Positions 56,548-59,598 of a stretch of 64,000 nt of DNA are shown here, in pieces. Made by a program: the position numbers and the translations under genes. The DNA comes from Candidatus Babelota bacterium (lineage in GTDB: Bacteria > Babelota > Babeliae > Babelales > JABDEC01), in assembly GCA_013286795.1 (NCBI GenBank), contig JABDFA010000008.1:7283-71282 (forward strand). Direction: 5' to 3'. The notes under the pieces are model-generated. The model did not search any database and had not been told where the DNA came from. It worked only from the letters and a program-made list of their open reading frames with translations. How positions within the stretch are numbered: position 1 is the first letter of the stretch; the number at the start of each line of letters is the position of its first letter.

Positions 56548-59500
56548 TTATACAATATAATATGATATAAGTGTTACGGTAAACATAACTGTCAAAATAA
56601 AGGGCCAAAATATGGTTATTTTTAAGTGTTCGAATAATTTAGTTTTTTCTCCAGTACTTATATCTATGCATAGTAGAACCATTAAGAGATATATGACAAA
56701 TAATAAGTATTCAATATAAACTACACCTGAAACACCAAGCTTGCTCCTTAAGGATTGATGTAACAATATTGTTGGGAAAAGTAATGCGATATAGATTGAT
56801 ATGGTAGAAATCATATTAAGTGTTATTGCATTCATTGACAATATTTGTAATAGAAACATGGCTAGAATTATAACAAGTAGAGGGAGTATAACAAGTATGA
56901 AAGCATCCATAGGGTTTCTGCTTGCCATAATATTATAAGTCAAAATATTATGGGTAATTATATTTTTATGTATGCCATAATTTGTGCTTGTTGGAATACT
57001 TTTAAATGAGAAAAATGTTTTGTCTATATCATATTTTTCTAATAATTCTTTATTTATACCTATTTTTTGTTCAGGAGCAAGATTTTTATAGCTATCAATA
57101 AATGGTGTTAATATTACGTCATCTTTTACAAAAGGATATTCTAGATCAATTTCGATTTTTTGTTTATCGAAAGGATAAAAGAAGAAAGAGCTGCGTTGAA
57201 ATACTGTTCCATTTATTTGAAATGCTATATTAAGATAATCCTTTTCCTTGTTTTGATACATTTCTTTAATGTTTAAATTCGAAGAAGCATTTTGTAATGT
57301 TATTTGTGGTTTCAAATCAAGTTTTGGATATTTTTGCCAAATTGAAGCAAAGAATGAGCAGTTATTTGAATCAGAAATATCAATAAAGTTAGCATAAATT
57401 CCTGTAGGTATAAGAATAGTTGTTGGTGTTATAATTTTTTCTAATGCTCTTTGGACATCAATTTCATTTGTTATTGCTGATTGTTGCATTGCAAAATATG
57501 AGTTTTTGTATGTTAATAAATAAATATAAATAGTTCCAGATAATAGCACTAGTGAATACAGTATACTGTATTTAGCCATCGTTTTTATTTGTAGATTATA
57601 AGGCTTTATAACTAGAAAGCCTGAGATCAGTATTATTAACATTAATACAATCAATATTAATATGGATAAGTTTGATAAAAAATTAAATGTTTGATCCAAT
57701 TCAACATATTGAAATAATTCAGTATCACTGTAAAATGTTATGAATACCCATTTTGTTAATGGTGTAACCTCAAAAAAAGCGTAAATTGTATGATTATTTT
57801 CATCTATAAATTTTTCTATTCCTGAAGACTCTTCTTTAACTCTAGATCTTATTTTTAACAAAACATCTTTTTTTGTTATTTTTACAATGTCATCAAATGA
57901 TAAATTTCCTAAAACATATTCTTCATTATAATGATAAATTAATCTATCATCTTCAGATAATATTAATGAGATCTCTTCTTTTTGTGGGCCCAGATAAGCA
58001 ATAACTTTTTTTATGTTACTGAATGGATAGACGACAGCGACAGTTCCTATAGGTGTATTTGGATTATCTTTTGAAAAGAACGGTTCAGTATATATAATTG
58101 ATAAATCTTTTGATTCTTTTTCAATAAAAGGACCAATCCATTCAGGTTTATTCTTGAGTTTAAAATCATACCATTTAATTTGATTTATATTTTTTGAGGA
58201 TATTTCTGTTTTTCCGGTAGATATTTTATCATTTTGATTTAAAGAATATATATAATATGGTGGTTTTTCATTTCCATAAGCAACGTATATACCTGTGATA
58301 TTTTTATTACCAGATAATTTTTTAGATAAATAATCTTTTAATTCTTTTTCATTAAATTTTTGATTGTTTAAATCTAAACAGATAGAATGATTAAAAAATT
58401 TTATAGAATCCAAGTTCTCTGAAAGAATGGAACCAACACTTTTGACATCCACCGCTGTGCTGTTAATTTGTTGGTCATCAAAATAGGAGCTCTCTTTTTT
58501 ATACTCTCTTATTAAATATCCAAGCAAAATGGCTAATGCTGCTAATAAAATCAAAGCTGAATCACTGATTATTGATTTTAAATATTTTTTAAAAGAATTT
58601 AAAATAATAATTTTTCTAGTATTAAATATTATTATTATCCAGAAGATATATATAAGTATTAAAATAAATAATATAGTTTTTATAATATTTGGAACAAAAA
58701 GAACTTCTGACAGATCCTGTTCAACAGCAATGGACCAACTTGAATCAATTAAATACCCTCTAGCATTAAGAACTAATTTATCATTTACAAACATTATATC
58801 AGATCCAACTACATCACCTAATACAGATAATGTAACTGGGGATTTGATCGATAATGTTTTGTAAAATTTAAAAGCATAATTAGGATTAAATCTGGTATTA
58901 AAAATAATTAAAGCTTGATTGTTTGATCTTTTGGAAATAAAAATATCACCAGTATTACCCAAGTTATTATAATATTTAGAAATTATTTTATAAATAGTTT
59001 CAGCATCTATTTTTATTGCCAACATCCCAATGACATGATCTTCAAATAAACAAGGAAAGGATATAAAAAGGGAATTTTCTGATTTATCTTTTGGGCCAAT
59101 AGGTCCAAATTCAGAGATGATAGGGGTTAATAAAGTCTGAGTTAGATTAATTAATTGAGAAATGATTTGATACTCATCTATTTTCTCATTAACATTAATT
59201 CCTGTAGGAATATTATTTTTTGCTGAAAATATCAAATTGCCTTCAGGAGTTATAAATATTATATCTTTATATTGCTCTAAAGAATTAGTCTTTTTAAATT
59301 CATTTATTAAATCATTTTTCTTTTTGAGATACTCAGGGGAATTAAGAGATGTCGATTTTAAATCATTTAAATATTTAAAAATTTGCTTTTGTTCAACGAT
59401 TACTTTGGTAAAATTTTCAATATTATTATTAAAATAATCTTTAATTTCATTATTAAGTTTTTCTTGGACAGAATTAAGATGAGACTTTGCACTTTCTATG

Positions 59501-59598
59501 GTTATATTTTTGAAATATACATATCCCGCAATACTTAATAATAGAAAACTGCTGATAATAATTAAAAATTTTAATTCACTTAATTTTATTTTTATCAT
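56548..59598 (-). CDS. Multidomain membrane receptor: two Cache-like extracytoplasmic modules plus a C-terminal pentameric ligand-gated ion channel (pLGIC/Cys-loop-family) module
   Basis: AAGGAA RBS. TM1, then a ~270-aa Cache-like domain (DIIFITPEGNLIFSA, HVIGMLAIKIDAETIYKII, SSWSIAVEQDLSEVL). TM hairpin, then a second Cache-like domain (WYDF...PEWIGPFIEKESKDLSIIYTEPFF...PIGTVAVVYPFSNIKKVI). TM hairpin, then the pLGIC module: beta-sandwich with FFFYPFDKQKIEIDLE (YPFDKQ at 57160-57177), M1 RNPMDAFILVILPLLVIIL, M2, M3 VVYIEYLLFVIYLLMVLL, short M3-M4 loop, M4. Confidence 0.7.
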   Translation of the reverse strand: MIKIKLSELKFLIIISSFLLLSIAGYVYFKNITIESAKSHLNSVQEKLNNEIKDYFNNNIENFTKVIVEQKQIFKYLNDLKSTSLNSPEYLKKKNDLINEFKKTNSLEQYKDIIFITPEGNLIFSAKNNIPTGINVNEKIDEYQIISQLINLTQTLLTPIISEFGPIGPKDKSENSLFISFPCLFEDHVIGMLAIKIDAETIYKIISKYYNNLGNTGDIFISKRSNNQALIIFNTRFNPNYAFKFYKTLSIKSPVTLSVLGDVVGSDIMFVNDKLVLNARGYLIDSSWSIAVEQDLSEVLFVPNIIKTILFILILIYIFWIIIIFNTRKIIILNSFKKYLKSIISDSALILLAALAILLGYLIREYKKESSYFDDQQINSTAVDVKSVGSILSENLDSIKFFNHSICLDLNNQKFNEKELKDYLSKKLSGNKNITGIYVAYGNEKPPYYIYSLNQNDKISTGKTEISSKNINQIKWYDFKLKNKPEWIGPFIEKESKDLSIIYTEPFFSKDNPNTPIGTVAVVYPFSNIKKVIAYLGPQKEEISLILSEDDRLIYHYNEEYVLGNLSFDDIVKITKKDVLLKIRSRVKEESSGIEKFIDENNHTIYAFFEVTPLTKWVFITFYSDTELFQYVELDQTFNFLSNLSILILIVLMLIILISGFLVIKPYNLQIKTMAKYSILYSLVLLSGTIYIYLLTYKNSYFAMQQSAITNEIDVQRALEKIITPTTILIPTGIYANFIDISDSNNCSFFASIWQKYPKLDLKPQITLQNASSNLNIKEMYQNKEKDYLNIAFQINGTVFQRSSFFFYPFDKQKIEIDLEYPFVKDDVILTPFIDSYKNLAPEQKIGINKELLEKYDIDKTFFSFKSIPTSTNYGIHKNIITHNILTYNIMASRNPMDAFILVILPLLVIILAMFLLQILSMNAITLNMISTISIYIALLFPTILLHQSLRSKLGVSGVVYIEYLLFVIYLLMVLLCIDISTGEKTKLFEHLKITIFWPFILTVMFTVTLISYYIV

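Follow-up and report, generated by a model that had tools for sequence, protein, structure and literature searches.

A predicted pentameric ligand-gated channel subunit with two membrane-anchored double-Cache modules, and its binding-protein gene neighbours, in a Candidatus Babelota bacterium

This work concerns a channel-like gene and the three genes that precede it, near one end of a 64,000-nucleotide stretch of a Candidatus Babelota bacterium (GenBank assembly GCA_013286795.1, contig JABDFA010000008.1, positions 7,283 to 71,282), hereafter the window. The gene encodes a 1016-residue subunit in which two double-Cache (dCache) sensor modules precede a core of the pentameric ligand-gated ion channel (pLGIC) type. 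It is the last gene of an operon that also encodes three paralogous solute-binding proteins, on the same strand. An earlier reading made from the letters of this DNA alone, the sequence-only reading, had described the subunit; the conserved upstream binding-protein genes, which it did not mention, are the most informative context. The operon comprises the following genes.

56548..59598, minus strand: channel gene, 1016-residue subunit with nine transmembrane (TM) helices, two dCache modules and a pLGIC-like core (open reading frame list, second assembly, AlphaFold2 model)
59612..60874, minus strand: PBP_A, UrtA-like protein of the Peripla_BP_5 family with a putative membrane anchor (Pfam E=1.6e-123), 13 nt upstream of the channel gene
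60878..62167, minus strand: PBP_B, paralogue (Pfam E=5e-124)
62146..63417, minus strand: PBP_C, third paralogue (Pfam E=3.3e-105)

The channel gene is real and encodes, as one polypeptide, a pLGIC subunit with two membrane-anchored sensor domains. It starts with an ATG, with a Shine-Dalgarno-like AAGGA motif about 8 nt upstream. Random codons at about 26% G+C would contain about 8.6% stops, roughly one every 12 codons, so that a run of 1016 open codons (about e^-91 by chance) is not a chance event. The identical 1016-residue protein is encoded in an independently assembled contig (Logan SRR8433578), and the frame is collinear with 41 other full-length representatives, in line with the earlier proposal of a single, not mis-joined, polypeptide. 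Separately, a 111-residue open reading frame lies antisense within the gene (58529-58864, plus strand); it is of low complexity, rich in Ile, Lys and Asn, and almost certainly spurious.

From the N-terminus to the C-terminus, the subunit is predicted to be built as follows, with the Kyte-Doolittle (KD) value given for each of the first five TM helices.

59512..59568, minus strand: TM1, residues 11-29, N-terminus predicted cytoplasmic (KD 2.22; model helix 6-69 continues into the dCache stalk; hydrophobic in 41 of 42 homologues)
58687..59511, minus strand: dCache module 1, residues 30-304, predicted extracytoplasmic (Pfam dCache_1)
58513..58686, minus strand: first hairpin, residues 305-362, made of TM2, a 16-residue Lys/Arg-rich loop predicted cytoplasmic, and TM3 (KD 2.91 and 2.19)
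57673..58512, minus strand: dCache module 2, residues 363-642, predicted extracytoplasmic (Pfam dCache_1)
57508..57672, minus strand: second hairpin, residues 643-697, made of TM4, a 13-residue loop predicted cytoplasmic, and TM5 (KD 3.48 and 1.71)
56917..57507, minus strand: linker with a short helix (698-727) and pLGIC extracellular beta-sandwich (728-894; model strands 728-894)
57139..57177, minus strand: Pro-loop at the 'Cys-loop' position, YPFDKQKIEIDLE, residues 808-820, no flanking cysteines (sequence)
56551..56916, minus strand: pore domain M1-M4, residues 895-1016 (model helices 896-923, 929-954, 961-982 and 987-1015)

The order of modules is thus TM1, dCache_1, TM2/TM3 hairpin, dCache_1, TM4/TM5 hairpin, beta-sandwich extracellular domain (ECD) and M1-M4. 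Kyte-Doolittle peaks at residues 11-29, 305-325, 342-362, 643-664, 678-697, 897-917, 924-947, 957-979 and 994-1014 coincide with helices of the AlphaFold2 model, and both recover the hydrophobic segments, including the two hairpins, that had been read from the translation. The full-length model, built with 42 full-length homologues, has a predicted local distance difference test score (pLDDT) of 83.4 and a predicted template modelling score (pTM) of 0.68. All nine hydrophobic segments are retained in 32-42 of the 42 collinear homologues, and TM1-TM5 in 41-42 of them. Each cytoplasmic loop is shorter than 20 residues and the subunit lacks a cytoplasmic output domain. Lys and Arg are more frequent, across the 42 homologues, in the predicted cytoplasmic loops (0.14-0.20 per residue) than in the periplasmic flanks (0.08-0.16), which lends the topology modest support by the positive-inside rule. 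The usual placement of dCache domains and pLGIC ECDs offers a stronger argument: in all known cases they are extracytoplasmic, so that all three soluble modules would lie on that side, as the order of the TM helices also indicates and as was first proposed.

Assignment of the C-terminal part to the pLGICs had been suggested from motifs, and fold comparison and family profile both bear it out. An AlphaFold2 model of residues 636-1016 (pLDDT 89.6, pTM 0.86) was compared with the PDB using Foldseek, and the top 50 matches were all pLGICs (GLIC, ELIC, sTeLIC, DeCLIC, GABA-A and glycine receptors), with E values of about 1e-11, a probability of 1.00 and query-normalised TM-scores (TMq) of 0.49-0.59, despite 64 extra residues in the query. 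For the bacterial GLIC, ELIC and sTeLIC, the alignments span entire subunits, with target-normalised TM-scores (TMt) of 0.64-0.70. The full-length model likewise retrieved pLGICs, alongside dCache sensor domains. At the sequence level, the single sequence found in the PDB only the beta subunit of the Torpedo nicotinic acetylcholine receptor (nAChR), at a marginal E=0.013 and in register from FPFD to M3, the Pro-loop aligning with FPFDWQ of nAChR beta. A profile of 16 short family members reached GLIC at E=1e-10, in register from the RYPFD Pro-loop (RYPFDSQ in GLIC) through M4; among its 133 PDB matches at E<=10, 60 of the 60 matches listed were GLIC. The Pro-loop without flanking cysteines and the very short M3-M4 loop (4-12 residues), both pointed out earlier, are indeed present. 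Domain models, suggested as a further check, did part of the work: dCache_1 was found, while the channel part was called neither by the Pfam Neur_chan models nor by NCBIfam, so that profile and fold comparison were needed. Taken by fold, motifs and profile, the C-terminal 320 residues are a true but divergent member of the pLGIC (Pro-loop) superfamily.

Conservation within the family is in line with this class assignment. W754 is invariant; in the Pro-loop Y808-P809-F810-D811, P809 is kept in 149 of 149 members and D811 in 144; and the pre-M1 R894 (146 of 149) and the M1 P906 (144 of 149) both align with their GLIC equivalents. The near-invariant residues of the pore domain are R894, P906, F941, H947, R951, E963 and P999, and the M2/M3 signature of the family consists of F13', H19', R23' and YxEY. 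The ECD and the transmembrane domain (TMD) are the best-conserved parts of the protein, with 29-32% identity as against 14-24% elsewhere. For M2, the HMMER register was preferred to that of MAFFT --add, as the distances of M2 from the pre-M1 Arg and from M3 are then maintained; in this register the window protein reads T-2', I2', S6', I9', F13', I16' and Q20', and a conserved cluster of H19', R23' and the M3 Glu falls at the ECD-TMD interface. No charged selectivity residue is evident in M2 in the HMMER register, and the MAFFT register differs. We also observed that the M1-M2 loop of the window protein (residues 918-929, about 56812-56847; QILSMNAITLN) is uncharged and 7-10 residues shorter than that of its relatives, most of which carry K, E, D or R there; this could affect ion selectivity or conduction.

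The two Cache-like modules that had been noticed upstream of the core each turn out to be a full double-Cache domain. Pfam dCache_1 matches residues 30-305 (E=2.7e-8, profile positions 2-176 of 240) and 371-642 (E=1.2e-9, positions 6-237 of 240). The whole protein scores 57.6 bits with this model (PF02743) against a gathering cut-off of 45, from two stretches, each of which alone remains under the cut-off (34.1 and 38.5 bits); the model is matched in 40 of the 42 two-dCache homologues. In the AlphaFold2 model, both modules display a long N-terminal helix followed by two alpha/beta (PDC) lobes, and both are bracketed by TM helices. Foldseek matches of the full-length model include the dCache domains of 3lic (TMt 0.77), TlpC (5wbf, 0.75) and Tlp3 (6w3s, 0.68), the output not specifying which module is aligned. 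No similarity between modules 1 and 2 was detected by direct BLASTP (E=1.5). Alignment of their profiles over the 42 homologues with hhalign, by contrast, runs end to end over 293 columns (probability 98.9%, E=3.9e-17); by this profile-profile comparison, and by it only, the two TM-dCache-TM units are recognised as collinear repeats of one unit type.

The hairpins between the soluble modules, TM2/TM3 and TM4/TM5, each turn through a short loop rich in Lys and Arg. The first is modelled as helices 301-327 and 329-411, its hydrophobicity being retained in 41-42 of the 42 homologues although sequence identity is only 14%; the second (helices 636-664 and 671-699) is reproduced in the C-terminal model. 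The type of ligand was also considered. The AA_motif of the dCache_1AA amino-acid sensors, as defined in PMC8915833 (Y-x4-R-x-W-Y ... Y ... D), is absent from the modules, no Y.{4}R.W[YF] occurs in the whole protein, and its sole WY (residue 476) follows I-K instead of R-x. A role of the modules as amino-acid sensors was rejected on this ground.

The subunit belongs to a large family. A word-indexed search with the whole protein returned only the protein itself and one relative (P0002), and a full-protein scan of the species genomes found no relatives; the family was recovered by an exhaustive HMMER search with residues 698-1016 (the C-terminal 319 residues), in which 1180 cluster representatives passed a cut-off of E<=1e-3 (915 with E<=1e-10). 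Where source names are given, they are almost always 'hypothetical protein'. Further loci were found with an alignment of 12 sequences sharing LYIEY[LF]FF. From the lengths of the best 151 proteins (150 matches plus P0002), four classes of architecture were distinguished.

About 300-400 residues: core alone, 13 of the best 151
About 420-460 residues: hairpin and core, 8 of the best 151 (400-500-residue bin)
About 650-750 residues: one dCache, hairpin and core, 67 of the best 151
About 930-1140 residues: two dCache, two hairpins and core, 42 of the best 151, window protein included

In round figures, one-dCache forms measure about 700 residues and two-dCache forms about 1000-1065. The sequence-only reading had called this architecture unusual, which holds relative to characterised channels; metagenome bins of Babeliales nevertheless commonly carry the two-dCache form, and fusions of Cache with pLGIC were already on record in 2005. 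The design is thus recurrent and selected, not a one-off, and unusual only in comparison with the channels studied so far.

Several relatives deserve separate mention. At locus L005, the gene is called as two, encoding a 443-residue dCache protein and a 624-residue dCache-channel protein. A natural split-gene form was rejected there: none of the three frames is free of stops at the dCache1/dCache2 junction, and the adjacent TAL_FSA and UvrB genes are also fragmented. The locus and these neighbours are broken up in both L005 (3403-7875) and L009 (393-1274); indel errors in the long-read assembly or decay of the copy most likely account for L005, and P0154 and P0142 are probably fragments, not natural short forms. 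P0002 (L006, 6001-8679) carries between its TM hairpin and its ECD a low-complexity linker of about 230 residues (about 370-600), rich in Pro, Gln, Ala and His, so that the link to the top of the ECD tolerates very long spacers. P0159 (L007/L008), a single-dCache member from another lineage, has gene neighbours of the sulfur-oxidation type (flavocytochrome c sulfide dehydrogenase, multihaem cytochromes and rhodanese); nearby, a distinct dCache_2/sCache_2 protein is encoded, and a binding-protein gene is absent.

The genes upstream of the channel gene show a conserved arrangement. PBP_A, PBP_B and PBP_C are mutually 51-54% identical. Their closest solved chain is 8tg1_A (E=2e-104), a structure for which a literature search found no description, followed by UrtA (8hic, 2e-71; 7s6f and 7s6e, about 1e-71) and AmiC (2e-43). 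With the NCBIfam UrtA model TIGR03407, they score 383, 404 and 336 bits, respectively, all under the cut-off of 492.75. A hydrophobic segment stands at each N-terminus, and no more than about 8 residues separate it from the first strand of the fold, which suggests an uncleaved membrane anchor. A Peripla_BP_5 gene whose product is 38-46% identical to those of the window lies directly upstream, on the same strand, in 11 of the 11 distinct intact two-dCache loci (the window, L002/L011, L004, L010 and L012-L018), and also in the frameshifted L005, i.e., in 12 of 12 two-dCache loci; it often overlaps the channel start codon. The single-dCache locus L019 (protein P0018) displays the same arrangement; a dedicated docking role for dCache module 1, which had been considered, was dropped on this ground. 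No ABC permease or ATPase gene (UrtBCDE) was found in the flanks of the window, L001, L002, L004, L010 or L019, and no LSGG[QEM] ABC signature within the 64-kb window.

Domain fusion points in the same direction. P0111 and P0132, of about 1500 residues, combine one dCache, a hairpin and the pLGIC core with two C-terminal binding-protein domains of the Bmp/PnrA and ABC_sub_bind types, which are joined to the chain directly behind M4, on the extracellular side; P0111 is identical in two independent assemblies (L022, 5001-9701; L023, 437-5137). Conserved adjacency and domain fusion together argue for a functional partnership between channel and binding protein.

Eight conserved urea-contact residues are known from Prochlorococcus UrtA: W120, S122, Y141, Q144, E146, Y190, N246 and S274 (PMC10392092). 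PBP_B keeps all eight (W, S, Y, Q, E, Y, N, S) and is the only paralogue to do so; urea is a reasonable candidate ligand for PBP_B only, on this comparison of residues. PBP_A carries the substitutions Y190T and N246S, PBP_C carries Q144E, E146M and N246S, and these positions also differ among the orthologue pockets of further loci, six of which show Q144S/N246Q in combination. Since the pockets have diversified, several small polar ligands are suggested. As a separate observation, the window has three copies of the binding-protein gene, with different pocket signatures, where every other locus examined has one; this triplication looks like a lineage-specific expansion and may feed several ligands into one channel. 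Two further searches brought little: Rfam, screened for a riboswitch or other RNA upstream of the operon that would reveal a ligand, gave only the tRNA at 54845-54918, and promoter and terminator counts equalled those of shuffled controls in this AT-rich DNA.

These features can be set against several known systems. The window channel shares with GLIC, ELIC and sTeLIC the whole-subunit fold, the cysteine-less YPFD Pro-loop, the pre-M1 Arg, the M1 Pro and the very short M3-M4 loop. It differs from them by a sequence identity of only 11-18%, by five additional TM helices and two dCache modules before the ECD, by its own M2/M3 signature, by its binding-protein operon and by escaping the Pfam Neur_chan models. 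In DeCLIC of Desulfofustis, stated to be the only pLGIC of known structure that bears an N-terminal domain (NTD; PMC9897478), this domain is made of two beta jelly-roll lobes that join the ECD directly, TM helices being absent, and senses Ca2+ (PMC9897478, PMC12664993). Both proteins are of the prokaryotic pLGIC type with a two-lobed accessory periplasmic N-terminal region, which modulates gating in DeCLIC, and DeCLIC is among the Foldseek matches; in the window channel, however, the accessory domains are alpha/beta dCache, bracketed by TM helices and separated by hairpins from the ECD.

The closest precedent is older. Tasneem, Iyer, Jakobsson and Aravind described in 2005 bacterial and archaeal pLGICs fused to MCP-N and Cache or to PBP-I domains, together with operons of pLGICs with PBP-II or Cache genes, and proposed a role in small-solute sensing; the additional domains were placed between signal peptide and ligand-binding domain, and the channel was given four TM helices (PMC549065). 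These ligand-gated ion channels of the acetylcholine-receptor type (ART-LGICs) resemble the present family in having a Cache-type sensor N-terminal to the pLGIC core and binding proteins fused or encoded in the same operon; compared by description only, they differ in that the paper makes no mention of TM hairpins, tandem dCache repeats or a Peripla_BP_5 partner. In the library searched, literature on Cache or dCache with pLGIC, or on Dependentiae with ligand-gated channels, yielded nothing beyond that study. The general idea of Cache- or PBP-linked pLGICs is therefore two decades old and not categorically new. What distinguishes the present family is a divergent, unannotated pLGIC clade, subunits with 7 or 9 TM helices made from TM-dCache-TM units, and a fixed binding-protein partner.

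On the sensing side, receptors stimulated by binding proteins commonly use dCache domains, and LuxP, HptA, BasB and NspS act on dCache-type sensor domains (PMC8050422). The pairs LuxP-LuxQ, HptA-HptS, BasB-BasT and NspS-MbaA have in common with the window system a TM-flanked extracytoplasmic dCache or dCache-like domain and a binding-protein gene adjoining the receptor gene, and BasB belongs to Peripla_BP_6, a family related to Peripla_BP_5 (PMC8050422). Their outputs are different, namely kinases, chemoreceptor signalling, GGDEF/EAL (cyclic di-GMP) enzymes and a Ser/Thr kinase; in the 2021 review devoted to receptors of this kind, the words 'ion channel' do not occur (PMC8050422). The window binding proteins share fold and family with UrtA and AmiC, including the complete urea contacts of PBP_B, and depart from UrtA by their sub-threshold scores, the lack of UrtBCDE nearby, the anchor-like N-terminus and the altered pockets of PBP_A, PBP_C and most orthologues. 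By analogy only, ionotropic glutamate receptors (iGluRs) are ion channels controlled by bacterial-type binding-protein domains, and the alpha2-delta subunits of Ca2+ channels are dCache-containing companions of an ion channel (PMC8915833); the pore folds and subunit organisation of both are unrelated to the present one.

Taken together, the best explanation, which we regard as probable, is that the locus encodes a pentameric channel regulated by binding proteins and dCache modules. Five subunits would form one ion-conducting pore. The tethered binding proteins would capture small extracytoplasmic solutes, possibly urea for PBP_B and related small polar molecules for PBP_A and PBP_C, and would dock in their ligand-closed form on the dCache modules, as in LuxP-LuxQ, HptA-HptS, BasB-BasT and NspS. 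The TM helices flanking the dCache modules, displaced in this way, would then pass the movement to the channel ECD and TMD and alter the flux of ions. Coupling may run along the TM4-TM5 hairpin and on through the 30-residue linker until it reaches the top of the ECD, it may take place by direct dCache-ECD contact as with the DeCLIC NTD, or laterally, inside the membrane. As identity is 29-32% in the core and 14-18% in the hairpins, coupling in the periplasm is favoured over specific TM-TM coupling. The analysis shows the domain identities, the logic of the topology, membership in the family (by profile as well as by fold) and the gene linkage; pentamer formation, gating, ligand, coupling route and the conduction and type of ion are what we infer for the family.

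Several observations weigh against this explanation. No match to Pfam Neur_chan_LBD (PF02931) or Neur_chan_memb (PF02932) was obtained for the C-terminal 319 residues at E<=10, nor in any of the 42 two-dCache members (E<=0.01) or of 10 other members (E<=0.1). The register of M2 is ambiguous, HMMER and MAFFT being offset by 8 residues; in the HMMER register, the family has mostly A, S or T at 9', S, G or A at 6' and an invariant F13', and a small 9' residue combined with F13' departs from the canonical gate, polar at 6' and hydrophobic at 9'. The low conservation of the hairpins, the lowest of the protein, suggests connectors rather than specific signal conduits. Three of the four single-dCache loci have no neighbouring binding-protein gene, so that the partnership is not universal, and the pocket residues vary widely between loci, leaving urea as a candidate for one paralogue only. 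As regards the first of these points, the failure of the Neur_chan models reflects how far these models reach rather than any trait that would define the biology, this clade lying outside the coverage of the curated channel HMMs (hidden Markov models).

A more specific form of this explanation is possible, although we consider it unlikely. The locus would represent a new receptor class, in which tethered binding proteins signal to an intramolecular pseudo-dimer of the two TM-dCache-TM repeats, which in turn gates the pLGIC pore. Such a pseudo-dimer would imitate the bundle of four TM helices seen in dimeric kinases and chemoreceptors, and in this way sensors that work as dimers would be reconciled with a five-fold channel. 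Gating would then come from within the membrane or via the N-terminus of the ECD and would bypass the agonist site that classically lies between subunits; ion flux would be the output, a kind that is not listed for the known binding-protein-stimulated receptors, and the three paralogous binding proteins would provide three chemical inputs to be integrated.

Returning to the regulated channel as such, its main competitor is direct gating, in which the dCache modules, the ECD or both bind the ligand and open the pore, the binding proteins merely concentrating or delivering it or serving an unlinked transporter. Most characterised dCache domains indeed bind their ligand directly, in the membrane-distal lobe (PMC8050422), and conserved residues are under selection in both dCache modules. 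The three single-dCache relatives with no nearby binding-protein gene would fit this reading, and a role in 'preliminary concentration' was suggested for binding proteins by Tasneem et al. (PMC549065). It is more difficult to reconcile with strict adjacency in 12 of 12 two-dCache loci, with stop and start codons often overlapping, or with the covalent fusion of binding-protein domains in P0111 and P0132; no ABC transporter genes lie nearby, and the amino-acid motif is missing from both dCache modules. We therefore hold direct gating to be improbable, while giving it more weight than the readings that follow.

An uptake pore appears very improbable. The UrtA-like proteins would here pass urea or small amides to a wide pore of the pLGIC type, replacing the missing UrtBCDE in a reduced genome. 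The invariant Phe ring at 13' would narrow such a pore, even though the presumed pore positions 6' (S/G/A) and 9' (A/S/T) are small or polar in most members. The similarity of the binding proteins to those of urea transport, the complete urea pocket of PBP_B and the lack of an ABC partner in the flanks examined would fit this role; it leaves the dCache modules unexplained, and the surroundings of the locus showed neither a urease nor an amidase gene. Solute import is not known for any pLGIC.

A non-conducting relic, i.e., a membrane scaffold or sensor with an output other than ion flow, is still a little harder to defend. It could account for the blindness of the Pfam channel models, for the atypical pore pattern and for the unusually short, uncharged M1-M2 loop of the window protein. 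A relic would hardly be expected to keep the ECD and the TMD as its best-conserved parts, nor its gating-interface residues (Pro-loop D, pre-M1 R, M2-M3 H/R and M3 E) near-invariant in about 150 representatives; with cytoplasmic loops all under 20 residues, it would also have no cytoplasmic domain through which to act. Finally, the idea that the 1016-residue frame is an assembly or annotation artefact joining two or three genes, for which the two calls of 443 and 624 residues at L005 could be cited, is effectively refuted by an uninterrupted frame identical in two assemblies, by the 41 collinear representatives, by the confident modelling of the entire chain and by the stops in three frames and fragmented TAL_FSA and UvrB of L005, which point to indel errors or decay in that contig.

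Such a system would be of interest in several respects. The cellular role of prokaryotic pLGICs is largely unknown, and this family offers a testable model both for that role and for control by accessory domains, with three natural configurations (core, one dCache, two dCache) in which to ask how accessory sensors control a pLGIC pore. A clade of at least 1180 cluster representatives, missed by standard channel HMMs and widespread in metagenomes, constitutes a large unstudied receptor family. Its fixed pairing with a solute-binding protein makes the recording of a current upon addition of binding protein and ligand a concrete experiment. If the proposed regulation is true, it would provide the first ion-channel output for binding-protein/dCache sensing and a bacterial counterpart to the binding-protein-gated logic of glutamate receptors.

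The host is placed in the Babeliales (Dependentiae) by sequence similarity: the EF-G of the window shares 71-77% identity with proteins whose names give Candidatus Babeliales, Dependentiae or TM6, and two related channel loci are titled Candidatus Babeliales bacterium. The Dependentiae have reduced genomes and are associated with protists, as symbionts, and the reduced genomes of Babeliales hold little conventional signalling machinery. In such a genome, given what is generally known of the group, the channel could be a main route of host sensing. To our knowledge, Dependentiae are not known for flagellar chemotaxis, so that a role as chemotaxis receptor is unlikely here. That role was proposed for bacterial pLGICs in 2005 (PMC549065).

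The channel locus is surrounded by ankyrin- and Sel1/TPR-repeat genes. Directly downstream, the product of the gene at 55075-56409 (minus strand) has 444 residues and a signal-like N-terminus and matches DUF5092 (E=8e-9) and, weakly, Sel1/TPR repeats; the gene is not conserved beside the channel at other loci. Next comes the tRNA gene at 54845-54918 (minus strand; Rfam, 71.7 bits), over which a plus-strand 'Plastid-ycf2' match, below its gathering score, is the mirror image of the tRNA. Three overlapping genes then occupy 52482-54853 (minus strand); the first product is SpoIID-like, the second is an RNase H, and the third, a zinc-ribbon protein with a coiled coil, gives a weak CT398-type match. 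That a Dependentiae genome holds a SpoIID homologue may merit attention. Base composition also varies along the window: positions 20000-46000, which carry the EF-G gene (27789-29861) and beside it a 395-residue open reading frame that we take to be EF-Tu, have a strongly positive GC skew (0.17-0.33) and 32-36% G+C, and at the ends of the window, the channel operon among them, G+C is about 25-28% and the skew near zero or negative.

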